Origin: Escherichia coli
Lineage (GTDB): Bacteria > Pseudomonadota > Gammaproteobacteria > Enterobacterales > Enterobacteriaceae
DNA: 64,000 nt
Assembly: GCF_002854065.1 (NCBI RefSeq)
Contig: NZ_CP024147.1
Direction: 5' to 3' (one strand)
Of the stretch, positions 31,123 through 58,600 are shown in pieces (within the stretch, counting starts at the first letter, position 1; each line of letters starts with the position of its first letter). Made by a program: the position numbers and the translations under genes. Below the pieces are notes generated by a model. That model made no database searches and was not told the DNA's origin. It was given only the letters and a program-made list of their open reading frames with translations.

Positions 31123-31438
31123 TATAATAAACTTACTTTTTTATCATTTTTCCACTTTAACAACATTTTGCTCCACTTTTCCACGAGCAAACAACTTGAA
31201 ATCTGGTTAAAATAACACGCAACACTATTCTTCTTCCTTGAGTCCGCCCGGAACTCGAAAAACAAACCGAGTTAAAGCCATTTTTCACAAAATCGATTTT
31301 GGGTCTCACCAAAGTTACGGGGTTGCATACGCATTCGTTTATTTTCGAACGTGTACATACAAATATGCACAAAAATAATCAAAATTATTTTCTGAGATGC
31401 ATTATGATATGAACACCAATTTCGTATAGAGTCTCACT

Positions 31439-32029: not shown

Positions 32030-32126
32030 AAAATAATCTCGGTGTGAGATGCTTTACGTCTTCCAAGCCCCCTTCCTTGCCGTAAATGGAAAGATACATC
32101 TAATTATAGAATTTATATGTTTTACC

Positions 32127-33271: not shown

Positions 33272-33275
33272 CTTA

Positions 33276-33401
33276 CGGGCAGAAGGTATTCACGCAGGGA
33301 AAATATCTTTCCCCCTCCGGTGTTCTCACCACGAAGCCGCACGACTCCGCTGGCGCACATCGCCGGGCGTGCGCCAGAATCGCTGATTCTGTCTCTGTCA
33401 T
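33276..33401 (-). pseudogene. N-terminal stub (42 codons) of lambda K-like tail assembly protein
   Basis: Minus-strand translation [38 protein letters not shown] then TFCP-stop; near-identical to the lambda K N-terminus as I recall it, then divergent. Confidence 0.7.
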
Positions 33402-33406
33402 GGGAT

Positions 33407-34105
33407 TCACTGCGAAAGTTTGTTAATGGAAAGGAAGCCGCCAAAGTTGCCGACGTTATTGCGAAACTTACAGCCGCTCAGGCATTTGCTGCATTTATCC
33501 TTCGTGATATCGGACGTCGGCTGATCATATTCATCCGCGACCGCCGGACCGTGATAACCGCACTCATCACCGCGATAGGTCCAGGTGCAGGTGTTGGCCA
33601 GCATGATACGTCCCGGAAAAACGGCACCGTCCGTTTCCGTCGGCGTGGACAGTACAAAAGAGGCACTGACCGCGCTCAGTTCGCTGCACTGCTCGATGCG
33701 CCAGCGGCTGATCACCTCCTGCTCCGGATCGGCGTCACTGTTTCCGTTGACGAAGTTCACCGCATCCAGAAAACGGGCGTAAACCTTACGCCGGACCACC
33801 GTTCCTCCGACCAGACTCTGCAGGTCTTCCGCCATCCCGGTGACCATGCCGTGCAGGTTAGAAACCGTCAGTGTCGGACGGGCAGCACTGCCTTTGCCGT
33901 TCAGTTCAAATCCCGTCCCCTGAATGGGATACGCCTGATACTGTCGCCCCTGCCAGGTGACCGGCTCACCTTTATCGTTCTGCTCATTACAGAAAAAGTA
34001 GCGTTCCCCGCCTACCTCGGTCAGGTCGATTTCCCAGAGCACCACCTGGGCTGACTGAGTGAGGCGTGTCGTCTCATGATGTGTTTCCTGTGGAATATCC
34101 TGCAT
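33407..34105 (-). CDS. minor tail protein L (lambda L homologue)
   Basis: 232 aa, same length as lambda L; position between M and K. Confidence 0.85.
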   Translation of the reverse strand: MQDIPQETHHETTRLTQSAQVVLWEIDLTEVGGERYFFCNEQNDKGEPVTWQGRQYQAYPIQGTGFELNGKGSAARPTLTVSNLHGMVTGMAEDLQSLVGGTVVRRKVYARFLDAVNFVNGNSDADPEQEVISRWRIEQCSELSAVSASFVLSTPTETDGAVFPGRIMLANTCTWTYRGDECGYHGPAVADEYDQPTSDITKDKCSKCLSGCKFRNNVGNFGGFLSINKLSQ

Positions 34106-34114
34106 CAGAGACTC

Positions 34115-34444
34115 CTATGCCACGACCTGTTCAAAATCTGCCGTTATGGTTACCCACAACGCCCCCACGCTTGCCGACCATTTACGACAAACCACCCTGA
34201 TCGGCTTCCAGTCATAAGGTGGCGTCCACTGAAATGCGCGGACGCCACCGTGCCGTTCCAGAAAGGCTTTTAAAGATGGGTGTTCACATTTACGAACACG
34301 TATAGTCACGCTGTAAATCGACAACTGGTTATTCAGTCCCGCCGCACGACGCTGTTCATAACCATCGCCCAGCTTCACTGTCACCACTTTCGGCTCTGAT
34401 ACCACATTCATATCCGGGCGCACTTTCCAGTGAAACGTCTCCAT
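34115..34444 (-). CDS. minor tail protein M (lambda M homologue)
   Basis: 109 aa; METFHWKVRPDMNVVSEPKV... closely resembles lambda M. Confidence 0.85.
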   Translation of the reverse strand: METFHWKVRPDMNVVSEPKVVTVKLGDGYEQRRAAGLNNQLSIYSVTIRVRKCEHPSLKAFLERHGGVRAFQWTPPYDWKPIRVVCRKWSASVGALWVTITADFEQVVA

Positions 34445-36618: not shown

Positions 36619-36798
36619 AAGCAACTCCATCTGGCAGGTGAAAATCATGTTTATTTATATATTTCAATTAATTGCAAACTGGTCTAATGACAGGGAGAAA
36701 AAAATATTGTACAGGTGAAAAGAGAAATAACTTTTAATTATCAATAAATTACCAAACATGCTGCCGCCGCCATGGAAATGCAAAAACTAGCCTTTTTC

Positions 36799-36818
36799 CG
36801 CGACGCTCCCGCCCCGTG
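36799..36818 (-). other. lambda-like cos (cosN-like) sequence ~180 bp upstream of the Nu1-like start
   Basis: Minus strand reads ACGGGGCGGGAGCGTCGCGG, close to the lambda cosN region ACGGGGCGGCGACCTCGCGG as I recall it. Confidence 0.55.
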
Positions 36819-37182
36819 GCAGGGGCCCCCACCGGGAGGACCCGACAGCCTGACAGCCGTGACGAGCATCTGATACAGCGCTTTACATAATGGCATAGGA
36901 ATAATTCAGAAGGACATCACAGCATGCCCACACAAATTAGTGTGAGTGTCCTGTTTCTTCCTACGCACAGGACTGACGAGCATGAGGGGAAAATATGCGA
37001 ACCATAAATGCCTCATCTTCAGCAATGCAGCCGGCATCCGAACAGGACGATATTGTAAATTCACCTAATTACGAGGACATTGCAGTAGTTGAATTGCAGC
37101 TCTGTATTAGCCTGACAGTGACAGAATGCGATACTGACTCTGTCACAGGTGAAATAGTTTGAATGATTAGCAGTTATGGTGC

Positions 37183-37389
37183 TCAGTCAACCACCAGGGA
37201 ATAATCCTTCGAATTCTTATCGTGCTTCACCAACGCTGCCTCAATTGCCCTGAATGCTTCCAGAGACACCTGATGTTCTATACATGCAATTACAACATCC
37301 GGGTAACTCATAGAAATGGTGCTATTAAGCATATTTTTTACACGAATCAGATCCAACGAGAGTTCATCAGCAGATTGTTCTTTATTCAT
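37183..37389 (-). CDS. small uncharacterized prophage protein
   Basis: 68-aa ORF in the AT-rich moron region divergent from ydfO. Confidence 0.5.
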
Positions 37390-37689
37390 TTTGTCGCTCC
37401 ATGCGTTTGCTCGTCATCTAGCGGTTAAAATATTACTTCAAATCTTTCTGCATAAAAGAGGAAAAGTATGAAAGTTTGAGTACATCGACCTTACATACAT
37501 CTGTCGGTTGCATATCCCTCCTGGATGCCAGCAAGGCTCAACTTTGTTACGCAATCAACACTATTCATTAAAAACAGGCTTAATATTTGACATAAATCAT
37601 CAACAAAACACAAAGAGGTCAGACCAGATTGAAACAATAAACACGATAATGCAAACTACGCGCCATCGTATCACATGGAAGGTTAACCA

Positions 37690-38100
37690 ATGGCTCAGGC
37701 TGCCATTTTTAAAGAAATATTCGATCAAGTGCGTAAAGATTTAAACTGTGAATTATTTTATTCTGAGCTAAAACGTCACAATGTCTCACTTTATATTTAC
37801 TATTTAGCCACAGATAATATTCACATTGTGTTAGAAAACGACAACATAGTGTTAGTAAAAGGACTCAAAAAGGTTGTAAATGTTAAATTCTCCAGAAACA
37901 AACATCTTATAGAGACCTCCTATAATAAGTTGAAATCAAAAGAAATCACATTTCAACAATACAGGGATAATCTTGCTAAAGCAGGAGTTTTCCGATGGGT
38001 TACAAATATCCAGGAACACCAAAGATATTACTATGCCTTTGATAACTCATTACTATTTACTGAAAGCATCCAGAAAACTACACAGATCTTACCACGCTAA
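37690..38100 (+). CDS. ydfO: uncharacterized prophage protein (DUF1398, YdfO-like)
   Basis: 136-aa ORF. Confidence 0.7.
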
Positions 38101-38251
38101 ACCATAACGTCCGGCTTCTCTCACTCCTGAGCCGGACTGCATTGGTTTAATAAAAACCATCAACAATTGTGATTTAGATATTCGGAACCATTCAAATATA
38201 ACAAAACCCCGTAAAAACGAGGTTTATGGATAAATTTTATTATTGAATACA

Positions 38252-38425
38252 TCAGATTAAATTAATCTTGACATCATAGCTTTCAAGACCCGTCATTTTT
38301 TCCCGTGCGGTAAACTGAATACTGGTAACTTCTTTCCCGGTCTTTTTCTTAAGTTCAATAATTTTTTTTGTTATATATTCAGAAATATCTGCTTCTGCTT
38401 TTGTTTTTAAGTCTTCAATATTCAT
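38252..38425 (-). CDS. gnsB: 57-aa GnsA/GnsB-family small protein
   Basis: Minus-strand translation MNIEDLKTKAEADISEYITKKIIELKKKTGKEVTSIQFTAREKMTGLESYDVKINLI; too short for the ORF track. Confidence 0.75.
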   Translation of the reverse strand: MNIEDLKTKAEADISEYITKKIIELKKKTGKEVTSIQFTAREKMTGLESYDVKINLI

Positions 38426-38596
38426 CATTTCCTCTTTTAGTCTGTTATGACTTTCCAGTTACACAGTAAATCGATTATATGGTGCAAACGTGTAAAAGAT
38501 AAGATGAAAAATCGCAATAATCAACATACGATAGTCTAAATTTTACACAAACAGACAAAGAGAATTTTCCTGAATTATCAATGCAATAGCATCAAA

Positions 38597-38752
38597 TCAA
38601 CTCAAGAGCCTTATTGCTGCTTCCAGAATTTCTTCTGAAGTAACATGTCGATCCGCGGCTACATAAATGACTTTATGATCTCCGGTCAGAGATGGAAACC
38701 CTGCGGCCATTACAGTAAGGTGTGTTTTTTCGCCATTTGGATATTCACGCAT
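38597..38752 (-). CDS. ynfN: small prophage protein (YnfN-like); start uncertain
   Basis: 51 aa from MREYPNGEK...; the same frame stays open upstream to 38869. Confidence 0.6.
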   Translation of the reverse strand: MREYPNGEKTHLTVMAAGFPSLTGDHKVIYVAADRHVTSEEILEAAIRLLS

Positions 38753-38870
38753 GATGGTGTTAACTCCAGTCATCGCTGGCACTACCACTGCTGGTTCAGA
38801 GTTAAAAAAAACTATGATTTTTTTCATGATGTTACCGTAGTATGTGAGTATCCATCGAATAGACACCAAG

Positions 38871-38905
38871 CAAAAAAGCTCCCGAAGGAGCCTTCATTTT
38901 CACTT
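38871..38905. terminator. bidirectional-looking hairpin (GCTCC-CGAA-GGAGC) flanked by A-run and T-run, ~200 bp downstream of cspI
   Basis: AAAAAAGCTCCCGAAGGAGCCTTCATTTTCACTTTTTT. Confidence 0.55.
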
Positions 38906-39098
38906 TTTTAAATCCAACGACAGACGGCTGGCATTTAAGTATTGTGAAATATTATCAAATGTAATCATCATTGATTTACAAAAGATACATTTTGCCCCGA
39001 AAGGATTCATGTCAGAAACATCAAAAGATGATGTTCTATACTGGGAACCATGACAACACGGGCATCTAAAGTGAATATGGTTTGTAATATTGTCTACC

Positions 39099-39311
39099 TC
39101 AAAGCGCCACTACATGAACAGCGGCAGGACCTTTAGGTCCGTTCTCAATACCAAATTCAACTTCCTGATTCTCAGTTAATGTTTTGAAATCGTTGCTCTG
39201 AATTGCTGAGAAATGGACAAACACATCTTTGCTGCCATCTTTCGGCGTGATGAAACCAAAACCTTTTTCAGGGTTAAACCATTTCACTAAACCAGTCATT
39301 TTGTTAGACAT
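39099..39311 (-). CDS. cspI: CspA-family cold shock protein
   Basis: 70 aa, [23 protein letters not shown]... with RNP1/RNP2 motifs. Confidence 0.9.
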
Positions 39312-39673
39312 AATTATTACCTTTTGAAGAAATTAGCCCTTGGGCAGAATGGTCCGAAAAAAAATATCAGAGAGAAAAACCAACAAGGAAATCCCAAGAG
39401 GTACAAATAATAAAATTATAACAATGACTGCTTCAGATAAATTTGTAACAAACCAGAACACCATTAACGCATGATTAACCACCCATAGCAAGGATTACTT
39501 TTGTAAAGAAAAACACAGCAATGAAAGAATAGCTTTATTTATTAATAAAACGTGTCATTCTGATTAAGACCTTTTATCTTACCCTTAAGATTTCAGGAAT
39601 TTTGGCTCATGGAAGAGTCCTTTTTATTTAAATTTTACATTCCGCGATGTAAATGTTCCGATTTAATATTACC

Positions 39674-40698
<1,025 letters not shown>

Positions 40699-40702
<4 letters not shown>

Positions 40703-41010
40703 AGATATTTATGATGAGGACGCTCGTGCTTATTGGCAGGATTTTCAATCTTAAAGGAGTACTGATGCTGCAGATAAGACTCAACTTTTTCTGACAATTT
40801 TTCTGCTACTTCCAGGAAGACTTGCCGGACGCTCCTTCTGGCTGCTGCCTCATAAAACTCCAGCGCAGCTCCTTCAACACGGTCCATGGCGACATCCAGG
40901 TCAAAAATTTCACCGTCAAAGCGTTCTTTGTCCTGTAAGGCTACAGTTACCGTAACTTTGTTCTCAAAATTACGGACTCCTTTCACAACCAGTTCATAGT
41001 CTTGAGTCAT
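40699..41010 (-). CDS. ydfR: uncharacterized protein encoded between holin and endolysin
   Basis: 103-aa ORF overlapping the endolysin start by 4 nt (ATGA). Confidence 0.7.
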
Positions 41011-41014
41011 TGGA

Positions 41015-41230
41015 TTACTCTCCTCTCGCAGCCTTACGCCTGTCTTCTTTAATCTTGAAATAAAGATTTGTCAGATACGTCAGCAGGCCAAAAACCAGGC
41101 TACCCAGCACACCGATTGCAGCCCACTGTGACGGAGTTACTTTATCGAGTAACTGCAATGCCCAGAAACCAGCATTACCCGCCGATGTGCCATAGGCAAC
41201 ACCTGTTGTTAACTTATCCATTGATTTCAT
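41015..41230 (-). CDS. essQ: S21-type holin (pinholin)
   Basis: 71 aa from [28 protein letters not shown]... with two TM segments; track ORF extends upstream to 41305. Confidence 0.85.
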
Positions 41231-41449
41231 ATCCTCACCCCGATGTACACGGATGGTGCAATATGTTTGAAAAGATCGGAGTCTACGGGGTAGTTTTGAC
41301 AGCACACGCTGTTCTCAACGGCGCTAAAGAAACATACACATTAAAAATGTGAGTAATTATTTTGAAAGAAAGTCATATATAAAATAATAATACGAGAAAT
41401 GTTTTCATATTTAGTGTACTGTATACGGCCATTTATACAGGAAAAGCCT

Positions 41450-41620
41450 ATGTCAGAACGTAAAGACTCAAAATCACGCCGTAATTATCTCGTTAAATGT
41501 TCCTGCCCAAACTGCACCCAAGAGTCAGAACACAGTTTTTCAAGAGTACAAAAAGGTGCCCTTTTGATCTGCCCTCATTGCAACAAAGTATTCCAGACAA
41601 ATCTTAAAGCTGCAGCCTGA
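41450..41620 (+). CDS. 56-aa zinc-ribbon small protein (CPNC-x17-CPHC)
   Basis: ATG at 41450 with AGGAAAAG upstream; two CxxC pairs. Confidence 0.6.
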   Translation: MSERKDSKSRRNYLVKCSCPNCTQESEHSFSRVQKGALLICPHCNKVFQTNLKAAA

Positions 41621-41677
41621 TTGATTTTATTAGTAACAAGTATTTTTTATATTTTAATAATATATTTAAAGTAGATA

Positions 41678-41703
41678 ATAAAAAACCCGCCTGAGCGGGT
41701 TTG
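41678..41703 (-). terminator. minus-strand intrinsic terminator ~280 nt downstream of cspB
   Basis: AACCCGC-CTGA-GCGGGTT with a U-run on the minus strand. Confidence 0.6.
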
Positions 41704-41983
41704 AGATTGTGGTGCTTTTTGTGGGAGTCATCCACTTACGCACTTTGTTTTGCCATGCCAGCAGTTAGCTTCTGCTGTAAAACTATTCATGCCGCAAACC
41801 TGCACTTCACCACAATGGTTAGCATACTTTTCCTGATTAAGATTTTGCCAAATATGCTGGCCATTGTTTCATGTATTGGACCTCCTTAATTTTTATTAAA
41901 GAAATCCAATATTCACTACTCTGTCCGTATCTCTACTCAGGCATCAGCCTTCTTCGTTATCGTATACAGACGAGCGATGAATT

Positions 41984-42199
41984 TTAATCAGTAATGATGA
42001 CATTTGCTGCTGCAGGACCTTTAGCACCACTCTCTATAGAGAAGGTAACCTTTTGACCTTCAAATAAGGTTCGATAATTATCATTCTGAATCGCAGAAAA
42101 ATGCACAAACACATCTTTACTACCATCAACAGGAGAAATAAAGCCGAAACCTTTATCAGCGTTAAACCATTTTACTAAACCAGTCATTTTATTTGACAT
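41984..42199 (-). CDS. cspB: CspA-family cold shock protein
   Basis: 71 aa, [23 protein letters not shown]... Confidence 0.9.
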
Positions 42200-42490
42200 T
42201 CTACATTCCTTAACTTGAGCCTTTCGGCATAAATGGTTTGCATAACAGAAACGACTTCGTACTTAATTGGAGAGACTCAAAGAAGGAATAAGTGAATAAC
42301 ACCTGAAATGAGAACTGCTTTAGTAAACTACTTCGTATATCGTCTGTTCTTCAAACCGACGCAGTCATTAACTCATAGTTGAACATATGAAGCAATGTTT
42401 ATTTTAGACATCCAGCCACCTTCAACCCTATCAAAAAAGTAGTTTTCTCCAGGAACGTGTGTATGGTGCACCAGGTTATCAGTATTAAGG

Positions 42491-42724
42491 AGTTTTTCTG
42501 TCCCCTAAAATGACAGGAATTGTCAAAAACTTTGACTACAAAAGCAGCAAAGGTCTTATATCCCCATCCGATGGCGTATCGATGCCCAGCTTCAGGTTTC
42601 AGCTCTCAATCTTCGAGATGCAGAAGAAATTACCACAGGATTACGCGTGGAATTTTGCCGGATAAATGGTTCGCGTGGACCTTCAACTCCCAATGTTTAT
42701 CCTGGGATGAGATTCAATATCTCT
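42491..42724 (+). pseudogene. cspF: cspF-like cold-shock gene, apparently frameshifted
   Basis: Frame A (ATG 42491) encodes [22 protein letters not shown] then leaves the cold-shock-domain pattern; a second frame from ~42556 encodes ...[20 protein letters not shown] (domain C-terminus) and runs on without the expected stop. Confidence 0.5.
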
Positions 42725-42744
42725 ATTGCCCCATTTAAAGCACA

Positions 42745-42777
42745 AAAACCCGCTTATCAGCGGGTTTTCTACTTTTT
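42745..42777 (+). terminator. intrinsic terminator after the cspF-like gene
   Basis: AAACCCGC-TTATCA-GCGGGTTT followed by a T-rich run. Confidence 0.65.
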
Positions 42778-42874
42778 TCTAAACGTCGGATACACAAAGC
42801 CCATCGTTGAGAAAATCTTATCCATGTTTTTTGAAAAATGCAAACATCATGTCGCCATCTTCAGCAAAAATCAT

Positions 42875-44516
<1,642 letters not shown>

Positions 44517-48889: not shown

Positions 48890-49174
48890 CATTAATAATA
48901 ATCGATCGTATTTTTGATGGTGTAAACCCGTTCGACGGCGGGTTTTACTCCTTCATCAACAATGATCAGCTGACAGTCCACTGGATTGGCGTGACTGTCA
49001 TATTCACAGCTCTGTTTTACATTACCAACCCGTTGATTGTTCAGTAAAGTAACCGCTGTGTAATCTAATTTTTTGATCGGATCCGTTGATGGCGTGGCGC
49101 TGACAGATAATGTTTTGTCGTTACTTTTCGTGGTTTTACCCAGCGGATACCCCTGATCATCATTGGATTTGCCC

Positions 49175-50080
49175 CTATATTTCCAGACATCTGTTATCAC
49201 TTAACCCATTACAAGCCCGCTGCCGCAGATATTCCCGTGGCGAGCGATAACCCAGCGCACTATGCGGATGCCATTCGTTATAATGCTCGAACGCCTCTGC
49301 AAGGTTCTTTGCTGCCGTTAACCCGTCTGGTTTGGGCATGATACTGATGTAGTCACGCTTTATCGTTTTCACGAAGCTCTCTGCTATTCCGTTACTCTCC
49401 GGACTCCGCACCGCCGTGTTCTTCGGTTCAAGTCCCAACATCCGGGCGAACTGGCGTGTTTCATTAGCCCGGTAGCATGAACCATTATCCGTCAGCCACT
49501 CCACTGGAGACGACGGAAGATCGTTGCCGAAGCGGCGTTCCACCGCTCCCAGCATGACGTCCTGTACTGTTTCACTGTTGAAGCCGCCGGTAGTGACCGC
49601 CCAGTGCAGTGCCTCACGATCACAGCAGTCCAGCGCGAACGTGACACGCAGTCTCTCTCCGTTATCACAGCAGAACTCGAACCCGTCAGAGCACCATCGC
49701 TGATTGCTTTCTTTCACGGCCACTCTGCCTGTATGTGCCCGTTTCGATGGCGGTACAGCAGGTTTTCGCTCAAGCAACAGCGCATTCTGGCGCATGATCC
49801 GGTAAACACGTTTGGCATTGATCGCAGGCATACCATCAAGTTCTGCCTGTCTGCGAAGCAGCGCCCATACCCGACGATAACCATACGTGGGCAGCTCTCC
49901 GATAACATGGTGTATACGGAGAAGCACATCCGTATCATCAGTGTGACGACTGCGGCGGCCATCCATCCAGTCATCGGTTCGTCTGAGAATGACGTGCAAC
50001 TGCGCACGCGACACCCGGAGACAACGGCTGACTAAGCTTACTCCCCATCCCCGGGCAATAAGGGCGCGTGCGCTATCCAC
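49175..50080 (-). CDS. insD: IS2 transposase OrfB (InsD-type)
   Basis: 301-aa DDE transposase ORF overlapping insC. Confidence 0.9.
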
Positions 50081-50403
50081 TTTTTTGCCCGTCCATATTC
50101 AACGGCTTCTTTGAGGAGTTCATTTTCCATCGTTTTCTTGCCGAGCAGGCGCTGGAGTTCTTTAATCTGCTTCATGGCGGCAGCAAGTTCAGAGGCAGGA
50201 ACAACCTGTTCTCCGGCGGCGACAGCAGTAAGACTTCCTTCCTGGTATTGCTTACGCCAGAGAAATAACTGGCTGGCTGCTACACCATGTTGCCGGGCAA
50301 CGAGGGAGACCGTCATCCCCGGTTCAAAGCTCTGCTGAACAATTGCGATCTTTTCCTGTGTGGTACGCCGTCTGCGTTTCTCCGGCCCTAAGACATCAAT
50401 CAT
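50038..50403 (-). CDS. insC: IS2 OrfA (InsC-type)
   Basis: [56 protein letters not shown]... Confidence 0.9.
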
Positions 50404-51045
50404 CTGTTCTCCAATGACTAGTCTAAAAACTAGTATTAAGACTATCACTTATTTAAGTGATATTGGTTGTCTGGAGATTCAGGGGGCCAGTCTAATCATA
50501 GCGATATTCCATCTGCATCTGTTTGCTGCTGGCTTTAATCACGAAGCCATTATCATCGGTTTCCCAACTCACCCCGGCAGAAGGTAATTCTGCTAGCTGG
50601 CATTTTCCCTGTAAACGTACTCTCTTCTCCAGCGTCTCGGCATCACGGTAATAATTGGCGTCCAGTACCAGAGCGACCACGGTATTATTTTCCAGATCCA
50701 GTAATTCGAGTGAATCAAAACAGCCTTCTTCCGACAAAGTCCCCGAAACACGTTTCGTCACTTCACCTTGCTCATCCATTAATGTCTGAGTGAAATCTTT
50801 TACCGGACCACGCAGCGGATCAAAATCGAATTCATTAGAGAAACTGGCCATCTCAGGAGTAAATGAAAGTGTTACCTCTGTGCGGTCACATCCTGTGAGT
50901 AATATCGCGAGTAAGCATGGCAGTAATTTGTATTTCACATCAGTCACCAGAGAGTAGAGATGATTCTCAATCATAGTAGCAAATACAGTACTTTACACGT
51001 TAAATGCTATGCTTAAAGAAGTTATCTTCGCGTAAGGAGCTTATG

Positions 51046-51351
51046 ATGAAACTCTCAACCTGCTGTGCCGCGCTTCTGCTCGCCCTCGCCTCACCCGCGG
51101 TACTCGCCGCGCCGGGATCCTGTGAGTGCATACAGAGCGATATATCACAGCGCATTATCAATAATGGCGTACCCGAAAGCAGCTTCACGTTAAGTATTGC
51201 ACCCAATGACCAGGTTGATCAGCCTGATTCCCAGGTCGTCGGGCATTGTGCTAATGATACGCATAAAATTCTCTACACCCGCACCACCAGCGGTAACGTC
51301 TCTGCTCCCGCGCAGTCTACCCAGGATGGCGCGCCTGCCGAACTGCAGTAA
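51046..51351 (+). CDS. ynfD: secreted DUF1161 protein
   Basis: ~101 aa from the ATG at 51046, signal peptide MKLSTCCAALLLALASPAVLA. Confidence 0.8.
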   Translation: MKLSTCCAALLLALASPAVLAAPGSCECIQSDISQRIINNGVPESSFTLSIAPNDQVDQPDSQVVGHCANDTHKILYTRTTSGNVSAPAQSTQDGAPAELQ

Positions 51352-51435
51352 TACATTATCGACTGAACGCCGGATACGACGCATCCGGCGATTTGAACAT
51401 ATAACATAACCCACCTTATTACTCATACCCTTCTA

Positions 51436-51449
51436 TTGATATGGATTAA
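51436..51449 (+). promoter_or_regulatory. FNR-like site (TTGAT-ATGG-ATTAA) ~100 bp upstream of ynfE
   Basis: One mismatch to TTGAT-N4-ATCAA; fits an anaerobic respiratory operon. Confidence 0.4.
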
Positions 51450-51548
51450 TAATTCTTAACCCAAAATGGGTAGACCCCCTCTATTGTTAGCGCGCTAAAT
51501 ATTCAATATATAAACTTTTATATAACGATAAAGAACAGGGAGTGAGTT

Positions 51549-53975
51549 ATGTCCAAAAATGAACAAATGGTGGGCATCAGCCGCAGAACACTCGTTAAAT
51601 CTACCGCGATAGGTTCTCTGGCGCTGGCTGCAGGCGGTTTTTCTTTACCGTTTACCCTGCACAGTGCAGCAGCAGCGGTACAACAGGCCCGCGAAAAAGT
51701 GGTCTGGGGTGCCTGTTCTGTCAACTGTGGTAGCCGCTGTGCACTTCGTCTACATGTTAAAGATAATGAAGTGACCTGGGTGGAAACTGACAATACCGGC
51801 AGCGATGAGTACGGCAACCATCAGGTACGCGCCTGTTTGCGCGGTCGCTCCATCCGCCGGCGTATTAATCATCCCGATCGCTTGAATTACCCAATGAAAC
51901 GCGTGGGCAAACGCGGCGAAGGCAAATTCGAACGGATTAGCTGGGATGAAGCCCTGGATACTATCGCCAGTAGCCTGAAGAAAACCGTCGAACAATATGG
52001 CAATGAGGCTGTATATATTCAGTACTCTTCGGGGATCGTTGGCGGCAATATGACCCGCTCTTCGCCATCAGCCTCGGCGGTCAAACGCCTGATGAACTGC
52101 TACGGCGGTTCACTCAACCAGTATGGCTCCTACAGCACTGCGCAAATTTCCTGTGCCATGCCCTACACCTACGGCAGTAATGATGGCAACAGCACCACGG
52201 ATATTGAAAACAGCAAGCTGGTCGTGATGTTTGGTAACAACCCGGCAGAAACCCGCATGAGCGGCGGTGGCATCACTTATCTTCTTGAAAAAGCCCGCGA
52301 AAAATCGAACGCAAAAATGATTGTTATCGATCCGCGATATACCGATACGGCTGCCGGTCGTGAAGACGAATGGCTTCCTATTCGCCCGGGCACCGATGCC
52401 GCGCTGGTTGCGGGTATTGCCTGGGTATTGATTAACGAAAATCTCGTTGATCAACCTTTTCTCGATAAATACTGCGTCGGCTATGACGAAAAAACCTTAC
52501 CCGCAGATGCACCCAAAAATGGTCACTATAAAGCCTATATTCTTGGTGAAGGTGACGATAAAACAGCGAAAACGCCGCAGTGGGCTTCGCAAATTACCGG
52601 TATCCCGGTGGACCGTATCATCAAACTGGCGCGTGAAATTGGCACAGCAAAACCCGCTTATATCTGCCAGGGCTGGGGGCCGCAACGCCAGGCAAACGGC
52701 GAGCTGACCGCACGCGCTATTGCTATGTTGCCTATTCTGACGGGCAATGTCGGCATCAGCGGCGGAAATAGTGGCGCGCGTGAATCGACCTATACCATTA
52801 CCATAGAGCGCCTGCCGGTGCTGGATAATCCGGTCAAAACGTCAATTTCCTGCTTCAGCTGGACAGATGCTATCGATCATGGCCCACAAATGACGGCAAT
52901 CCGCGACGGTGTCCGGGGCAAAGATAAACTGGATGTGCCCATTAAGTTCATCTGGAACTACGCGGGAAATACCCTGGTTAATCAGCATTCTGACATCAAC
53001 AAAACGCATGAAATTCTGCAGGACGAATCGAAATGCGAAATGATTGTGGTCATCGAAAACTTTATGACCTCATCGGCAAAATATGCCGACATTCTGCTGC
53101 CAGACCTGATGACCGTTGAGCAGGAAGATATTATTCCTAACGACTACGCCGGTAACATGGGATATCTCATTTTCCTCCAGCCAGTCACCAGCGAAAAATT
53201 CGAACGTAAACCGATTTACTGGATCCTGAGTGAGGTCGCGAAACGTCTTGGACCTGACGTCTATCAAAAGTTCACTGAAGGTCGCACGCAGGAACAATGG
53301 TTACAACATCTGTACGCCAAAATGCTTGCCAAAGATCCGGCGTTACCGTCTTACGACGAACTGAAAAAAATGGGTATCTATAAGCGTAAAGATCCCAATG
53401 GTCATTTTGTCGCCTACAAAGCATTTCGTGACGACCCCGAGGCAAATCCACTTAAAACACCTTCCGGTAAGATTGAAATTTATTCCAGCAAGCTGGCGGA
53501 AATTGCCCGTACCTGGGAACTGGAAAAAGATGAAGTGATAAGCCCACTGCCAGTTTATGCCTCAACCTTTGAAGGCTGGGACTCCCCTGAACGTAGTACC
53601 TTTCCACTGCAACTGTTTGGTTTCCATTACAAATCCCGTACTCACTCGACCTACGGCAATATTGATCTCCTGAAGGCTGCCTGCCGTCAGGAGGTGTGGA
53701 TCAACCCTATAGATGCGCAGAAACGTGGGATTGCCAACGGCGATATGGTGCGGGTGTTTAACCATCGTGGCGAAGTTCGGCTACCAGCCAAAGTGACACC
53801 ACGTATTCTCCCTGGAGTTAGCGCTATGGGCCAGGGAGCCTGGCACGAGGCCAATATGTCTGGCGATAAAATCGACCATGGAGGCTGTGTGAATACGCTA
53901 ACCACTCTGCGCCCTTCACCACTGGCGAAGGGAAACCCGCAGCATACGAATCTGGTCGAGATCGAAAAAATATAA
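51549..53975 (+). CDS. ynfE: molybdopterin oxidoreductase catalytic subunit (DmsA paralogue; putative selenate reductase), Tat-exported
   Basis: 808-aa ORF; twin-arginine signal (SRRTLVKS); CSVNCGSRC FeS motif. Confidence 0.95.
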   Translation: MSKNEQMVGISRRTLVKSTAIGSLALAAGGFSLPFTLHSAAAAVQQAREKVVWGACSVNCGSRCALRLHVKDNEVTWVETDNTGSDEYGNHQVRACLRGRSIRRRINHPDRLNYPMKRVGKRGEGKFERISWDEALDTIASSLKKTVEQYGNEAVYIQYSSGIVGGNMTRSSPSASAVKRLMNCYGGSLNQYGSYSTAQISCAMPYTYGSNDGNSTTDIENSKLVVMFGNNPAETRMSGGGITYLLEKAREKSNAKMIVIDPRYTDTAAGREDEWLPIRPGTDAALVAGIAWVLINENLVDQPFLDKYCVGYDEKTLPADAPKNGHYKAYILGEGDDKTAKTPQWASQITGIPVDRIIKLAREIGTAKPAYICQGWGPQRQANGELTARAIAMLPILTGNVGISGGNSGARESTYTITIERLPVLDNPVKTSISCFSWTDAIDHGPQMTAIRDGVRGKDKLDVPIKFIWNYAGNTLVNQHSDINKTHEILQDESKCEMIVVIENFMTSSAKYADILLPDLMTVEQEDIIPNDYAGNMGYLIFLQPVTSEKFERKPIYWILSEVAKRLGPDVYQKFTEGRTQEQWLQHLYAKMLAKDPALPSYDELKKMGIYKRKDPNGHFVAYKAFRDDPEANPLKTPSGKIEIYSSKLAEIARTWELEKDEVISPLPVYASTFEGWDSPERSTFPLQLFGFHYKSRTHSTYGNIDLLKAACRQEVWINPIDAQKRGIANGDMVRVFNHRGEVRLPAKVTPRILPGVSAMGQGAWHEANMSGDKIDHGGCVNTLTTLRPSPLAKGNPQHTNLVEIEKI

Positions 53976-54032
53976 CCCACTACAACCATAAATTCTGGCA
54001 TGACATTTTGTTTGAAAAGCAATAAGTGAGTA

Positions 54033-56459
54033 ATGATGAAAATCCATACCACAGAGGCGCTCATGAAGGCTGAAATCAGCCGTAGAAGTCTGATGAAAAC
54101 CTCCGCACTTGGCAGTCTTGCGCTGGCAAGCAGTGCTTTCACTCTGCCATTTTCCCAAATGGTCCGGGCGGCAGAGGCTCCGGTAGAAGAGAAAGCGGTC
54201 TGGAGTTCCTGTACCGTTAACTGCGGGAGCCGCTGTCTGTTACGTTTGCATGTGAAAGATGACACCGTGTACTGGGTGGAGTCTGATACGACAGGTGACG
54301 ACGTCTACGGTAATCATCAGGTTCGAGCGTGTTTACGCGGGCGCTCTATCCGCCGACGGATGAATCATCCTGATAGGTTGAAATATCCCATGAAGCGCGT
54401 CGGCAAGCGCGGTGAAGGTAAATTTGAACGGATAAGTTGGGACGAAGCCCTGGATACCATCAGTGATAATCTTCGGCGGATCCTAAAAGATTACGGCAAT
54501 GAGGCTGTACATGTCCTGTACGGAACAGGTGTAGATGGCGGAAACATCACCAACTCAAACGTCCCGTACCGTCTGATGAACTCTTGCGGTGGTTTTCTCA
54601 GTCGCTATGGCAGCTACAGTACCGCACAGATCAGTGCCGCAATGAGTTATATGTTCGGTGCCAATGATGGCAACAGCCCGGATGATATCGCCAATACGAA
54701 ACTGGTCGTTATGTTCGGAAATAACCCGGCAGAAACGCGGATGAGCGGTGGTGGTGTCACTTACTACGTCGAGCAAGCCCGCGAACGTTCAAACGCACGC
54801 ATGATCGTCATCGATCCACGTTATAACGACACAGCTGCCGGGCGTGAAGATGAATGGCTGCCCATTCGCCCTGGCACCGATGGCGCACTGGCCTGTGCGA
54901 TTGCCTGGGTACTGATTACTGAAAACATGGTCGATCAGCCATTTCTCGACAAATATTGTGTTGGTTACGATGAAAAAACGCTGCCCGCCAACGCACCACG
55001 TAACGCGCATTATAAAGCCTATATTCTGGGCGAAGGGCCTGACGGCATAGCTAAAACGCCGGAATGGGCAGCAAAAATCACCTGCATCCCGGCAGAAAAA
55101 ATTATCCAGTTGGCACGAGAGATCGGTTCAGCAAAACCTGCTTATATTTGTCAGGGTTGGGGGCCACAACGACATTCCAACGGCGAGCAAACATCCCGCG
55201 CTATTGCCATGCTTTCCGTTCTCATCGGTAACGTCGGCATAAACGGCGGCAACTCAGGCGTACGCGAAGGTAGCTGGGATCTGGGGGTAGAATGGTTCCC
55301 GATGCTCGAGAATCCTGTTAAAACGCAGATTTCCGTCTTTACATGGACAGATGCCATCGATCATGGTACGGAAATGACCGCGACCCGTGATGGTGTTCGT
55401 GGAAAAGAAAAACTGGATGTCCCCATCAAGTTTTTATGGTGCTACGCCAGTAACACATTGATCAATCAACATGGCGACATCAATCACACCCATGAGGTGC
55501 TTCAGGATGACAGCAAGTGCGAGATGATTGTTGGCATTGACCACTTCATGACGGCCTCGGCTAAGTATTGCGATATCCTGTTGCCCGACCTGATGCCAAC
55601 AGAGCAAGAAGACCTTATCTCTCATGAATCTGCAGGGAATATGGGCTATGTGATCCTCGCCCAACCCGCAACCTCAGCAAAATTTGAACGCAAACCCATC
55701 TACTGGATGCTGAGTGAAGTCGCCAAACGCTTAGGACCGGACGTTTATCAAACCTTTACTGAAGGTCGCAGTCAGCATGAATGGATCAAATATCTCCATG
55801 CGAAAACGAAGGAACGTAACCCTGAGATGCCCGACTACGAGGAGATGAAAACGACCGGGATCTTTAAGAAAAAATGCCCGGAAGAACACTACGTCGCTTT
55901 CCGCGCATTCCGTGAAGATCCACAGGCAAACCCGTTGAAAACACCTTCGGGGAAAATCGAAATTTATTCTGAACGACTGGCGAAGATTGCAGATACCTGG
56001 GAATTGAAAAAAGATGAAGTTATTCATCCCCTTCCAGCTTATACGCCAGGTTTTGATGGCTGGGACGATCCCCTGCGGAAAACCTATCCACTGCAGTTAA
56101 CGGGCTTCCACTACAAAGCGCGTACCCACTCCAGCTACGGCAATATTGATGTGTTACAGCAGGCCTGCCCACAAGAGGTGTGGATCAACCCCATTGATGC
56201 TCAGGCACGCGGTATCCGTCATGGCGATACCGTGCGGGTATTTAACAATAATGGAGAAATGCTGATTGCCGCAAAAGTGACTCCGCGTATTCTGCCTGGC
56301 GTTACCGCCATCGGGCAAGGTGCGTGGCTTAAAGCGGATATGTTTGGTGACCGGGTCGATCACGGCGGCAGTATTAATATTCTGACCTCTCACCGCCCTT
56401 CACCGCTGGCAAAGGGAAACCCGTCGCACAGCAATCTTGTCCAGATCGAAAAGGTTTAA
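54033..56459 (+). CDS. ynfF: molybdopterin oxidoreductase catalytic subunit, tandem paralogue of ynfE, Tat-exported
   Basis: 808-codon ORF (start may be the second ATG at 54036); twin-arginine signal (SRRSLMKT); CTVNCGSRC. Confidence 0.95.
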   Translation: MMKIHTTEALMKAEISRRSLMKTSALGSLALASSAFTLPFSQMVRAAEAPVEEKAVWSSCTVNCGSRCLLRLHVKDDTVYWVESDTTGDDVYGNHQVRACLRGRSIRRRMNHPDRLKYPMKRVGKRGEGKFERISWDEALDTISDNLRRILKDYGNEAVHVLYGTGVDGGNITNSNVPYRLMNSCGGFLSRYGSYSTAQISAAMSYMFGANDGNSPDDIANTKLVVMFGNNPAETRMSGGGVTYYVEQARERSNARMIVIDPRYNDTAAGREDEWLPIRPGTDGALACAIAWVLITENMVDQPFLDKYCVGYDEKTLPANAPRNAHYKAYILGEGPDGIAKTPEWAAKITCIPAEKIIQLAREIGSAKPAYICQGWGPQRHSNGEQTSRAIAMLSVLIGNVGINGGNSGVREGSWDLGVEWFPMLENPVKTQISVFTWTDAIDHGTEMTATRDGVRGKEKLDVPIKFLWCYASNTLINQHGDINHTHEVLQDDSKCEMIVGIDHFMTASAKYCDILLPDLMPTEQEDLISHESAGNMGYVILAQPATSAKFERKPIYWMLSEVAKRLGPDVYQTFTEGRSQHEWIKYLHAKTKERNPEMPDYEEMKTTGIFKKKCPEEHYVAFRAFREDPQANPLKTPSGKIEIYSERLAKIADTWELKKDEVIHPLPAYTPGFDGWDDPLRKTYPLQLTGFHYKARTHSSYGNIDVLQQACPQEVWINPIDAQARGIRHGDTVRVFNNNGEMLIAAKVTPRILPGVTAIGQGAWLKADMFGDRVDHGGSINILTSHRPSPLAKGNPSHSNLVQIEKV

Positions 56460-56469
56460 GGAGTAGCCC

Positions 56470-57087
56470 ATGACCACACAATATGGATTTTTTATCGATT
56501 CCAGCCGCTGTACTGGCTGTAAAACCTGCGAACTGGCGTGCAAAGATTTTAAAGATCTTGGCCCGGAAGTCAGTTTCCGCCGTATTTATGAATATGCTGG
56601 CGGCGACTGGCAGGAAGATAATGGCGTCTGGCACCAGAACGTGTTCGCTTATTATCTCTCCATCTCCTGTAACCATTGCGATGACCCCGCATGTACAAAA
56701 GTCTGCCCCAGCGGCGCAATGCATAAGCGTGAAGATGGCTTTGTGGTGGTTGATGAAGATGTTTGTATCGGCTGCCGCTACTGCCACATGGCTTGTCCGT
56801 ACGGCGCGCCACAGTACAATGCTGAAAAAGGGCACATGACGAAGTGCGATGGTTGTTATTCGCGCGTCGCCGAGGGGAAACAACCCATATGTGTCGAATC
56901 CTGCCCGCTGCGTGCACTTGAGTTCGGTCCAATTGAAGAGCTGCGCCAGAAGCACGGCACTCTGGCTGCCGTCGCGCCACTGCCGCGCGCGCATTTCACA
57001 AAACCCAATATCGTTATCAAACCTAACGCCAACAGCCGCCCGACCGGCGATACCACTGGTTATCTGGCTAATCCGGAGGAAGTTTAA
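56470..57087 (+). CDS. ynfG: 4Fe-4S ferredoxin-type electron-transfer subunit (DmsB-like)
   Basis: 205-aa ORF with four Cys clusters. Confidence 0.95.
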   Translation: MTTQYGFFIDSSRCTGCKTCELACKDFKDLGPEVSFRRIYEYAGGDWQEDNGVWHQNVFAYYLSISCNHCDDPACTKVCPSGAMHKREDGFVVVDEDVCIGCRYCHMACPYGAPQYNAEKGHMTKCDGCYSRVAEGKQPICVESCPLRALEFGPIEELRQKHGTLAAVAPLPRAHFTKPNIVIKPNANSRPTGDTTGYLANPEEV

Positions 57088-57088
57088 A

Positions 57089-57943
57089 ATGGGAAATGGA
57101 TGGCATGAATGGCCACTGGTTATCTTTACCGTATTGGGTCAATGCATAGTAGGCGCGCTGATTGTTAGCGGAATTGGCTGGTTCGCCGCCAAAAATGACG
57201 CAGACCGTCAGCACATTGTTCGTGGCATGTTTTTCCTCTGGCTGTTGATGGGCATCGGGTTTATTGCCTCTGTCATGCACCTGGGATCGCCACTGCGGGC
57301 GTTTAACTCGCTGAATCGAATCGGAGCTTCTGGTCTGAGTAACGAGATTGCTGCCGGTTCCATATTTTTTGCCGTTGGCGGACTATGGTGGCTGGTGGCG
57401 GTCATCGGTAAAATGCCGCAAGCGTTGGGGAAACTCTGGTTACTTGTCAGCATGGCGCTCGGCGTCATTTTCGTCTGGATGATGACCTGCGTGTATCAAA
57501 TCGACACTGTGCCCACCTGGCATAACGGTTACACTACGCTGGCTTTCTTCCTGACGGTATTGTTGAGTGGTCCAATACTTGCTGCCGCAATTCTGCGGGC
57601 AGCCCGCGTTACATTTAATACCACACCATTTGCCATCATTAGCGTTCTAGCGCTGATCGCTTGTGCCGGGGTGATTGTGCTGCAAGGTTTGTCTCTGTCG
57701 TCTATTCACTCATCCGTGCAACAAGCCAGCGCACTAGTACCAGATTACGCCTCCTTACAGGTCTGGCGTGTGGTATTGTTATGCGCAGGTCTAGGATGCT
57801 GGCTTTGTCCGCTCATACGTCGCCGTGAACCTCACGTTGCCGGACTTATTCTGGGGTTAATCCTCATTCTTGGCGGTGAGATGATCGGGCGTGTGCTCTT
57901 TTATGGCCTGCACATGACGGTAGGAATGGCTATTGCAGGTTAA
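57089..57943 (+). CDS. ynfH: membrane anchor subunit (DmsC-like)
   Basis: ATG at 57089 (MGNGWHEWPLVIFTVLG...), ~284 aa, 8 TM helices; track ORF is an upstream extension. Confidence 0.9.
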   Translation: MGNGWHEWPLVIFTVLGQCIVGALIVSGIGWFAAKNDADRQHIVRGMFFLWLLMGIGFIASVMHLGSPLRAFNSLNRIGASGLSNEIAAGSIFFAVGGLWWLVAVIGKMPQALGKLWLLVSMALGVIFVWMMTCVYQIDTVPTWHNGYTTLAFFLTVLLSGPILAAAILRAARVTFNTTPFAIISVLALIACAGVIVLQGLSLSSIHSSVQQASALVPDYASLQVWRVVLLCAGLGCWLCPLIRRREPHVAGLILGLILILGGEMIGRVLFYGLHMTVGMAIAG

Positions 57944-57985
57944 CAAATTGGTGCGGGGCAACCCGCACATTTCAGGATGTTAGGA

Positions 57986-58600
57986 ATGACCCATTTTTCA
58001 CAGCAAGATAATTTTTCTGTCGCGGCGCGCGTGTTGGGCGCGCTGTTTTATTACGCTCCAGAGAGTGCTGAAGCCGCACCTCTGGTTGCGGTACTCACCA
58101 GTGACGGCTGGGAAACTCAGTGGCCTCTACCAGAAGCGTCATTAGCGCCGCTGGTGACGGCTTTTCAGACACAGTGTGAAGAGACTCACGCCCAGGCCTG
58201 GCAGCGTTTGTTTGTCGGCCCGTGGGCACTGCCGTCTCCGCCGTGGGGGTCGGTCTGGCTGGATCGCGAATCTGTGCTGTTTGGCGATTCAACATTGGCA
58301 CTTCGTCAGTGGATGCGCGAGAAAGGCATTCAGTTTGAAATGAAGCAAAACGAACCGGAAGATCATTTTGGTTCACTGCTGTTGATGGCTGCGTGGTTGG
58401 CGGAGAATGGTCGCCAGACAGAATGCGAAGAATTGCTGGCATGGCACCTTTTTCCGTGGTCAACACGTTTTCTTGACGTTTTTATCGAAAAAGCAGAACA
58501 CCCTTTCTACCGCGCACTGGGTGAACTGGCTCGCTTAACGCTGGCGCAATGGCAATCACAACTGTTAATTCCTGTCGCGGTTAAACCGCTGTTTCGATAG
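57986..58600 (+). CDS. dmsD: Tat proofreading chaperone (TorD/DmsD family)
   Basis: ~204 aa from the ATG at 57986. Confidence 0.9.
   Translation: MTHFSQQDNFSVAARVLGALFYYAPESAEAAPLVAVLTSDGWETQWPLPEASLAPLVTAFQTQCEETHAQAWQRLFVGPWALPSPPWGSVWLDRESVLFGDSTLALRQWMREKGIQFEMKQNEPEDHFGSLLLMAAWLAENGRQTECEELLAWHLFPWSTRFLDVFIEKAEHPFYRALGELARLTLAQWQSQLLIPVAVKPLFR

Follow-up and report, generated by a model that had tools for sequence, protein, structure and literature searches.

Ynf has been described, from the near-identical genes of Escherichia coli K-12 and Salmonella, as a DmsABC-related reductase of selenate and tellurate; the primary operon literature (Lubitz and Weiner, 2003; Guymer et al., 2009; Fujita et al., 2021) is represented here as reported in citing papers. 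The two systems share a three-subunit plan, in which a Tat-exported catalytic subunit with Mo-bisPGD and the FS0 cluster is joined by a four-cluster ferredoxin and a membrane anchor, and they have in common the chaperone DmsD, which according to the literature proofreads the Tat signal peptides of DmsA, YnfE and YnfF. Selenate and tellurate reduction has been assigned to Ynf in the literature, in contrast to DmsABC. Little has been published on what each of the two ynf catalytic copies does: YnfE and YnfF contribute differently to selenate reduction, the contribution of YnfF being small in Salmonella, and an E. coli strain deleted for ynfEF is complemented by the SrnA of Enterobacter cloacae. 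Moreover, RyhB acts as a translational repressor of ynfF and dmsA, ynfE not being listed among its targets, and the ynfF region from -60 to +24 was reported to confer this repression in a reporter fusion (PMC4666370), which would place the RyhB target in the ynfE-ynfF spacer. No structure of DmsA, YnfE or YnfF is found in the PDB, where the nearest entries are Rhodobacter DMSO reductase, TorA and PsrA.

The locus considered here lies in a window of 64,000 nucleotides of E. coli DNA (the whole stretch that was analysed; contig NZ_CP024147.1). The original prediction had noted two adjacent molybdoenzyme genes with the same motifs at the same spacing, followed by one ferredoxin and one anchor gene. 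The two reading frames were confirmed with exact coordinates, strand and motifs, the downstream pair was recovered by TIGR02951 and PF04976, and the matching motif spacing holds after residue about 180 of the global alignment. The operon comprises the following features.

51549-53975, plus strand: ynfE, an 808-residue ORF for a Tat-exported Mo-bisPGD/[4Fe-4S] catalytic subunit.
53976-54035, plus strand: ynfE-ynfF spacer of about 57-60 nt.
54033-56459, plus strand: ynfF, the paralogous catalytic subunit, 808 residues from the first ATG (807 in RefSeq, which starts one codon later at window position 54036).
56470-57087, plus strand: ynfG, a single-copy DmsB-type four-cluster ferredoxin and electron-transfer subunit (TIGR02951, Fer4_11).
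57089-57943, plus strand: ynfH, a DmsC-type membrane anchor/quinol oxidase subunit (Pfam PF04976; RefSeq annotation).
57986-58600, plus strand: dmsD, the Tat-proofreading chaperone for DmsA, YnfE and YnfF (NF008632).

The region is 99.9-100% identical to the annotated ynfE, ynfF, ynfG, ynfH and dmsD of E. coli CUWW06 (100% for ynfE), YnfE and YnfF share 99.1% and 99.6% amino-acid identity with a K-12-like strain, and gene order, sizes and motifs match the K-12 and Salmonella ynfEFGH-dmsD (ynfEFGHI) operon with no substantive difference. In their translations, YnfE and YnfF carry the twin-arginine signals ISRRTLVK and ISRRSLMK, the cysteine motifs CSVNCGSRC and CTVNCGSRC, and the C-termini NLVEIEKI and NLVQIEKV, respectively. 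Each is recognised by its own NCBIfam model (YnfE by NF041885, 1795.7 against a cut-off of 1675; YnfF by NF041884, 1770.8 against 1650), and YnfE stays under the cut-offs of the YnfF and DmsA models; with the DmsA model the two proteins reach about 1320-1340 bits, under the cut-off of 1600. Both exceed the cut-off of 777.7 for TIGR02166 (1398.7 and 1283.3) and contain PF04879 (Molybdop_Fe4S4), PF00384 (Molybdopterin) and PF01568 (Molydop_binding), so that the Tat signal, the N-terminal Cys cluster for FS0 and the Molybdopterin and Molydop_binding domains of the type III DMSO-reductase family (DmsA/YnfE-type) are all present. The genes downstream give similarly clear matches (YnfG, TIGR02951, 264.8 over a cut-off of 214.1; YnfH, PF04976 DmsC, E = 1.6e-127; DmsD, NF008632, 347.4 over 162), and the succession of catalytic genes, DmsB-type ferredoxin, DmsC-type anchor and NarJ/DmsD-family chaperone is the layout of a DmsABC-type operon. 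A scan of the ynfE-ynfF spacer found no promoter-like or terminator-like sites. Among 5426 complete E. coli genomes, more than 5300 carry the ynf region; the operon itself is already known and holds nothing new. With a probability of about 0.9, we read the region as the canonical ynfEFGH-dmsD operon, whose two catalytic genes are ancient tandem paralogues and a poor but not inert substrate for recombination.

By analogy with DmsABC, menaquinol would supply electrons to YnfH, and the four clusters of YnfG would hand them on to YnfE or YnfF. Both catalytic subunits are exported by Tat, face the periplasm as part of a membrane-bound reductase, and hold Mo-bis(pyranopterin guanine dinucleotide) and an N-terminal [4Fe-4S] cluster. 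DmsD proofreads the Tat signal peptides of YnfE and YnfF, and the catalytic subunit that receives the electrons would then, judging from the literature, reduce selenate or tellurate and probably S- and N-oxides.

The two copies are old and strongly diverged. In global alignment they share 70.7% of amino acids and 69.7% of nucleotides, far beyond chance; their third positions are 47% identical and synonymous differences are saturated (pS 0.70), pS between the paralogues being 0.70-0.74 in each of three species (E. coli, Salmonella and Citrobacter amalonaticus). Nonsynonymous divergence is 0.21 between paralogues, compared to 0.05-0.08 between orthologues. When E. coli is compared with C. amalonaticus, omega comes to about 0.03 for either gene, and the comparison with Salmonella gives the same value for ynfE; for ynfF in the latter pair dS is saturated, and its dN of 0.053 lies below the 0.081 of ynfE. 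On these sequence comparisons each copy is kept by strong purifying selection, ynfF being constrained at least as much as ynfE. Orthologous pairs of both genes occur at four other species loci, including Salmonella, C. amalonaticus and Pseudocitrobacter, and in a neighbour-joining tree computed without support values ynfF forms a separate clade, the E and F types cluster apart rather than by species, and YnfE and YnfF are nearer to each other than to DmsA. The duplication would hence be older than the split of Escherichia, Salmonella and Citrobacter, and the copies would have diverged without concerted evolution; the tree is compatible with an old duplication followed by many losses, or with a later duplication and fast early divergence of ynfF. 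The wider distribution was scanned at 80 of 560 confirmed loci, with E. coli, Shigella, E. albertii and S. enterica subsp. enterica left out, which makes it a sample and not a census: 36 of the 80 are single-copy with ynfG, ynfH and dmsD, 23 have ynfE followed by dmsD without ynfG, a true ynfF is present in 4, and a different second catalytic gene in 8. Single-copy ynfE-ynfG-ynfH-dmsD loci are found in Klebsiella, Kluyvera, Citrobacter portucalensis and Escherichia whittamii, with a YnfE 79-97% identical and the same downstream genes, lacking ynfF.

Functional divergence of YnfE and YnfF is plausible from published work, and it fits with long-term purifying selection on both copies, their differing contributions to selenate reduction, and the listing of ynfF, but not ynfE, among the targets of RyhB. 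The best surviving alternative is that the two are redundant isoenzymes, of which one, mainly ynfF, is decaying, so that the tandem layout has no present significance. Decay is indeed frequent in E. coli: ynfF is retained at no less than 80% of its length in 4739 of the 5426 genomes and ynfE in 5111, with about 11% and 4% of genomes, respectively, carrying decayed genes, and a whole clade of ~500-570 genomes, to which strains 131, JJ1887 and MNCRE44 belong, has a ynfF pseudogene with two internal deletions, located in window coordinates as follows.

54749-55329, plus strand: ynfF segment deleted in the pseudogene clade; the second deletion spans 56104-56377.

Several further lineages carry insertion-sequence (IS) lesions, both genes are among the metabolic genes most often pseudogenised in the E. 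coli pangenome (PMC13322260), and a Salmonella ynfF deletion was published as hardly altering selenate reduction. Decay this frequent in both genes shows that neither is essential to present-day E. coli, and the large pseudogene clade matters whenever ynfF expression or Ynf-dependent phenotypes are used in such strains. Against redundancy stand the pairs retained in Escherichia, Salmonella, C. amalonaticus and Pseudocitrobacter, the omega of about 0.03 with the lower dN of ynfF, the selective listing of ynfF and dmsA as RyhB targets (PMC4666370), and the published difference between the expression patterns of ynfE and ynfF; weighing both sides, we regard redundancy as an unlikely account. The ynfE allele of the window is itself rare, with 15 genomes at no less than 99% identity as opposed to 3415 for ynfF. 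In this strain an IS2 sits in the neighbouring ynfC.

The original prediction had further proposed that repeats of this kind are substrates for unequal recombination, by deletion or amplification, to be followed up with a survey for single-copy or fused variants and a scan of identity along the two genes. The survey recovered four independent in-frame ynfE'-'ynfF hybrids that stand in place of both genes, in the order ynfD-hybrid-ynfG-ynfH-dmsD. Each time exactly 2484 bp was removed, which is one repeat period, and the crossover lies inside an identity island of 6-14 nt. These islands, together with one at the gene ends, are located in the window as follows.

52239-52252, plus strand: crossover island AACCCGGCAGAAAC of allele 2, partner 54723-54736 in ynfF; carriers JCC-EE 7 and FELIX_MS533.
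52569-52577, plus strand: crossover island AAAACGCCG of allele 3, partner 55053-55061; carriers GCA_014942065.1 and ERR8574360.
52695-52704, plus strand: crossover island AACGGCGAGC of allele 1, whose length varies with the parental allele (8-10 nt), partner 55179-55188; carriers ECONIH4, CAVP776 and 0H15-0H26.
52836-52841, plus strand: crossover island AAAACG of allele 4, partner 55320-55325; carriers GCA_017909975.1 and SRR13848070.
53959-53968, plus strand: island AGATCGAAAA at the 3' ends of ynfE and ynfF, partner 56443-56452.

The junctions fall at about residues 232-236, 341-344, 383-386 and 430-432, giving proteins with the signal peptide and N-terminal third to half of YnfE and the C-terminal part of YnfF. 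Typing at the 715-718 fixed sites that separate ynfE from ynfF showed one clean switch from E to F in every hybrid, allele 2 for instance having 246 E-type sites and then 472 F-type sites with no exceptions. Stray opposite-type sites seen near the crossovers in a first pass disappeared once several E and F alleles defined the diagnostic sites, and were attributed to ordinary polymorphism. At 14, 10, 9 and 6 nt, the crossover tracts exceed the length expected if crossovers were placed uniformly along the gene (P about 0.01-0.02), a test on four events only, with lengths measured on non-parental alleles. Two more synthetic chimera queries for fusions crossing near the gene ends returned only normal genomes and out-of-register or internal deletions (XJ5.2, the E200086 group and AZ 191). 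The single ynfE of E. whittamii has an E-type body, with F-type last codons and spacer before ynfG; AGATCGAAAA would be its junction, and from the phylogeny its single copy is probably due to a secondary loss of ynfF.

Amplification, the other half of the proposal, was not recovered: a query spanning ynfE, the spacer and ynfF matched 5290 places in 5289 genomes, one place being on a plasmid, with no three-copy array, although amplifications are unstable and could escape a junction survey of this type. The products of unequal exchange in populations thus number four deletions and no amplification, so the claim held weakly for deletion and found no support for amplification. Nor did the scan along the two genes detect gene conversion. 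The longest exact common run, in or out of register, is 17 nt, a length reached in 1891 of 2000 codon shuffles and hence no more than chance, third-position identity is 35-60% in each 40-codon window, and sliding-window and longest-run tests on the codon alignment with a codon-shuffle control gave no conversion tract. RecA recombination in E. coli has a minimal processing segment of ~23-27 bp. This figure is said to originate with Shen and Huang in 1986. With 17 nt of exact identity ynfE and ynfF fall short of it, and they likewise lack the raised-identity tracts and clustering by species of concertedly evolving paralogues.

One might still view the pair as an active recombination and gene-conversion hotspot in concerted evolution, with frequent deletions and amplifications, and indeed the four in-register fusions, the single-copy locus of E. 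whittamii and an in-register E-IS-F structure found in O145 point in that direction. However, 69.7% nucleotide identity with a longest match of 17 nt, saturated synonymous sites, the lack of any conversion tract, fusions in a mere 10 of 5426 complete genomes (two alleles, and so two events), and an E-F junction never convincingly duplicated already contradict a hotspot, which we consider highly improbable; loss of ynf genes by routes other than fusion is far commoner than fusion. That the hybrids are assembly or annotation artefacts has next to no likelihood: alleles 3 and 4 do come from short-read draft assemblies only, but each from two independent ones, while allele 2 is present in two complete genomes, the same 2427-nt allele 1 recurs in three separately deposited complete-genome sets (USA, USA and Canada) with its exact protein on 68 public contigs of several sources, and paralogues without an exact word longer than 17 nt leave an assembler nothing to collapse.

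Returning to the reading of ancient paralogues that recombine poorly, a rare in-register exchange at islands of 6-14 nt would delete 2484 bp and leave a single in-frame hybrid ahead of ynfG. With parents that share only 70% identity and islands this short, classical homologous recombination is unlikely, and we favour an exchange guided by homeology and dependent on short homology over a classical RecA crossover. The near-inertness of a 70%-identical tandem pair is hereby quantified, at two fusions in 5426 complete genomes with zero amplification and zero conversion. Whether such recurrent exchange makes active chimeric molybdoenzymes in wild E. coli, at least one of them persisting in a geographically spread lineage, is a more tentative matter, which we hold possible but rather doubtful. 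Allele 1 scores under the cut-offs of both the YnfE and YnfF models (1642.9 and 1615.7), allele 2 is narrowly above that of YnfF (1674.4), and all hybrids are without the ynfF 5' region reported as the RyhB target. If true, the hybrids would amount to a domain-shuffling series made by nature, with which the substrate specificity of DmsA-type enzymes could be mapped, and to a case of homeology-guided, short-homology recombination in the chromosome; the four mapped chimeras could in any case serve to locate the part of a DmsA-type subunit that determines its substrate preference. We found no earlier description of natural ynfE/F hybrids in the literature searched, subscription papers being outside its scope.

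The locus departs from DmsABC in having two catalytic genes instead of one. Its hybrids resemble chimeric genes produced elsewhere by unequal crossing-over of tandem paralogues, such as the delta/beta-globin fusions (PMC4041002), in which, as in the ynf hybrids, an in-register exchange between tandem genes removes a single repeat unit and an in-frame hybrid remains. The ynf parents differ from the globin case in being only 70% identical and in having exchanged within islands of 6-14 nt.

The original prediction placed two similar molybdoenzyme genes in tandem, followed by one ferredoxin and one anchor gene, and all of these were recovered, the sole correction being the RefSeq start of ynfF at 54036, one codon downstream of the ORF start. 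The operon runs as follows, with ynfE and ynfF head to tail and the last three genes assigned by family models:

51549-53975, plus strand: ynfE, ORF of 808 codons
54033-56459, plus strand: ynfF, ORF of 808 codons
56470-57087, plus strand: ynfG, DmsB-type four-cluster ferredoxin
57089-57943, plus strand: ynfH, DmsC-type anchor
57986-58600, plus strand: dmsD, Tat-proofreading chaperone DmsD

The translations of YnfE and YnfF carry twin-arginine signals (ISRRTLVK and ISRRSLMK), cysteine motifs (CSVNCGSRC and CTVNCGSRC), matching C-termini (NLVEIEKI and NLVQIEKV) and Molybdop_Fe4S4, Molybdopterin and Molydop_binding domains. Each protein passes its own NCBIfam model (YnfE 1795.7 against a cut-off of 1675, YnfF 1770.8 against 1650) and falls below the cut-offs of the sister and DmsA models. 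Aligned globally, the pair is 70.7% identical in amino acids (803 aligned residues) and 69.7% in nucleotides; indels are confined to the signal-peptide region and the vicinity of residue 177, and a Salmonella paper independently gives 71%. The 8.5-kb stretch spanning both genes (annotated ynfE, ynfF, ynfG, ynfH, dmsD, clcB) is 99.9% identical to E. coli CUWW06 and has a match in 5424 of the 5426 complete E. coli genomes. The ynfE-ynfF spacer showed no promoter-like or terminator-like site.

A search for conversion tracts along the two genes revealed none. At third codon positions the genes are 47% identical overall, with a range of 35% to 60% across all 40-codon windows, and their longest identical run, whether in register or not, measures 17 nt, a length reached in 1891 of 2000 codon-shuffled alignments. 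By the Nei-Gojobori method, pS between the E. coli paralogues is 0.70, which is saturated, and dN is 0.21; the same figures hold for the pairs of Salmonella arizonae and Citrobacter amalonaticus. E. coli-Salmonella orthologues differ far less than the paralogues do (dN 0.081 for YnfE, 0.053 for YnfF). Omega comes to about 0.03 in all comparisons with an estimable dS, which are the E. coli-C. amalonaticus pairs of both genes and the E. coli-Salmonella pair of ynfE. The duplication is thus old and free of concerted evolution, and purifying selection has maintained both copies.

The repeats had also been proposed as substrates for unequal recombination, and this holds, though only weakly, for deletion; no amplification was detected. 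The 5426 genomes were surveyed with a synthetic query joining the ynfE 5' half to the ynfF 3' half, which normal genomes match at about 84-88%, so that true fusions rank highest. In ten genomes the interval from ynfD to ynfG holds one in-frame gene of 2427 bp: allele 1 is a single sequence common to ECONIH4, CAVP776 and six 0H isolates, and allele 2 is shared by JCC-EE 7 and FELIX_MS533. The exact allele 1 protein occurs on 68 public contigs, and its 90% cluster holds two more full-length hybrids, alleles 3 and 4, each in a ynfD-hybrid-ynfG-ynfH-dmsD locus and each from two independent assemblies. At 715-718 diagnostic sites, where five ynfE alleles consistently differ from five ynfF alleles, every hybrid shows a single clean switch from ynfE-like (E-type) to ynfF-like (F-type) sequence, and each event deletes exactly 2484 bp.

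Shared tracts at the switch points of the four hybrid alleles
Allele 2: AACCCGGCAGAAAC (14 nt), ynfE 52239-52252, ynfF 54723-54736
Allele 3: AAAACGCCG (9 nt), ynfE 52569-52577, ynfF 55053-55061
Allele 1: AACGGCGA(GC) (8-10 nt), ynfE 52695-52704, ynfF 55179-55188
Allele 4: AAAACG (6 nt), ynfE 52836-52841, ynfF 55320-55325

These tracts exceed the expectation under crossovers placed uniformly along the gene (P = 0.011 for all four being at least 6 nt; P = 0.018 for a sum of at least 39), and exact ynfE/ynfF matches of at least 12 nt occur in register only. RecA-mediated exchange usually requires a length well above these 6-14 nt. We therefore favour, from the four events, a homeology-guided, short-homology-dependent exchange by which the hybrids would arise. 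Chimera queries for both gene ends returned no more in-register fusions among the 5426 genomes, and the ynfE-spacer-ynfF junction was counted 5290 times across 5289 genomes, which gives no sign of amplification of the pair. No earlier description of natural ynfE/ynfF hybrids was found in the accessible literature.

In Escherichia whittamii ynfE is the only copy; its final codons and the spacer before ynfG are F-type, with AGATCGAAAA common at the switch. Since its sister species and Salmonella possess ynfF, this is most simply read as a fifth, older in-register loss, although it could be the ancestral arrangement. A different in-register structure occurs in O145 strains. In RM9872, ynfE is intact and an IS3-family element interrupts ynfF at about nt 1485; the related strain RM9154-C1 (1501-5239 of the fetched locus) carries ynfE nt 1-1487, the same IS and ynfF from nt 1482, the E-to-F switch being in register exactly at the IS end. 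Two routes could account for it: IS-IS recombination after a second insertion had hit the homologous triplet, or an in-register deletion next to the IS.

Non-fusion lesions are far more frequent than hybrids. At 80% length coverage or more, ynfE is found in 5111 of the 5426 genomes and ynfF in only 4739; both are absent from 104. Two internal deletions (corresponding to 54749-55329 and 56104-56377) mark the ynfF of about 500-570 genomes, among them strains 131, JJ1887 and MNCRE44, and elsewhere there are a 1.28-kb in-frame deletion within ynfE, an out-of-register E-to-F deletion and IS-associated deletions. Given such frequent loss of either copy, neither gene is essential in E. coli. A 2026 pangenome paper lists both among the E. 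coli metabolic genes most often pseudogenised (PMC13322260). IS-adjacent deletions also take out parts of the locus in EC812A1, where an IS3-family element replaces the ynfC 5' part, ynfD and nt 1-1396 of ynfE, and in MB07152, where IS1 links ydfJ with the final 326 nt of ynfF.

Beyond E. coli, a scan that took a single genome from each species gave 80 Enterobacterales loci holding a YnfE orthologue, a sample of 560 confirmed ones:

36 loci: single ynfE-ynfG-ynfH-dmsD
23 loci: ynfE then dmsD, without ynfG
8 loci: ynfE and a different second catalytic gene (about 65%)
4 loci: ynfE and true ynfF (89-91% to E. coli YnfF)
1 locus: two separate units
8 loci: too short for judgement

The true ynfF loci belong to Pseudocitrobacter, C. 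amalonaticus and two Salmonella subspecies. A rough neighbour-joining tree sets YnfF apart as a long-stemmed clade next to the one formed by all YnfE proteins, which fits either an old duplication with many losses or a later duplication with fast early divergence. The other second gene, in eight Serratia, Rahnella and Ewingella loci, shares about 65-69% identity with YnfE and 63-65% with YnfF and branches closer to the base of the rough tree; as it is not ynfF, the catalytic gene has been doubled in tandem, or the doubling retained, on more than one occasion in this family of operons. Six draft Enterobacter and Kluyvera contigs end from a few to about 220 bases past the ynfE orthologue, and in 23 other species dmsD follows ynfE with ynfG and ynfH absent from the fetched flank, which may reflect an assembly break at a repeat such as ynfG/dmsB or an operon that is truly organised differently.

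Immediately upstream of the operon, the lipoprotein gene ynfC is split by an IS3-family insertion of IS2 type (49164-50494; orfA 50038-50448 and orfB 49175-80, minus strand) with a 5-bp target duplication, leaving ynfC fragments at 48892-49163 and 50495-50974; CUWW06, otherwise 99.96-99.98% identical, has ynfC intact. CUWW06 also lacks a 13.5-kb segment (31044-44516), with IS1-flanked remnants at that position, which looks like a degraded lambdoid prophage from translations read by eye:

31439-32029: Pin-type invertase
32127-33271: tail-fibre assembly and tail-fibre fragments
33407-34105: minor tail protein L-like ORF
34444-36648: truncated tape-measure ORF
40169-40702: lysozyme
43295-44508: IS3-family element

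The ynfE allele here is rare (15 genomes at least 99% identical; dS 0.058 to a K-12-like strain) and the ynfF allele common (3415 genomes; dS 0.024). Together with differences from K-12 clustered at 51000-51500, 52500-53000 and 57000-58000 (ynfH), this suggests a patchy recombination history along the operon.

Functional divergence of the two copies is made plausible by published data, and long-term purifying selection on both agrees with it. In Salmonella, YnfE suffices for selenate reduction and the contribution of YnfF is small; in a dmsA mutant exposed to hypochlorite, ynfE and ynfF respond differently; and RyhB represses translation of ynfF through its -60 to +24 region, and of dmsA, ynfE not being listed (PMC4666370). 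The ynfF 5' region is absent from all four hybrids, which, if expressed, should escape RyhB control.

The operon itself is textbook knowledge and was rightly interpreted; a handful of precisely in-register natural hybrid genes lifts its interest slightly above the ordinary, which is still low. It has been described as a dmsABC paralogue encoding a selenate/tellurate reductase, with YnfE and YnfF as "paralogous isoenzymes" that both need DmsD. The PDB holds no solved structure of DmsA, YnfE or YnfF. By analogy with the established route in the dimethyl sulfoxide reductase DmsABC, electrons would travel from menaquinol by way of YnfH and YnfG to the N-terminal [4Fe-4S] cluster FS0 and the Mo-bisPGD of whichever catalytic subunit is assembled.
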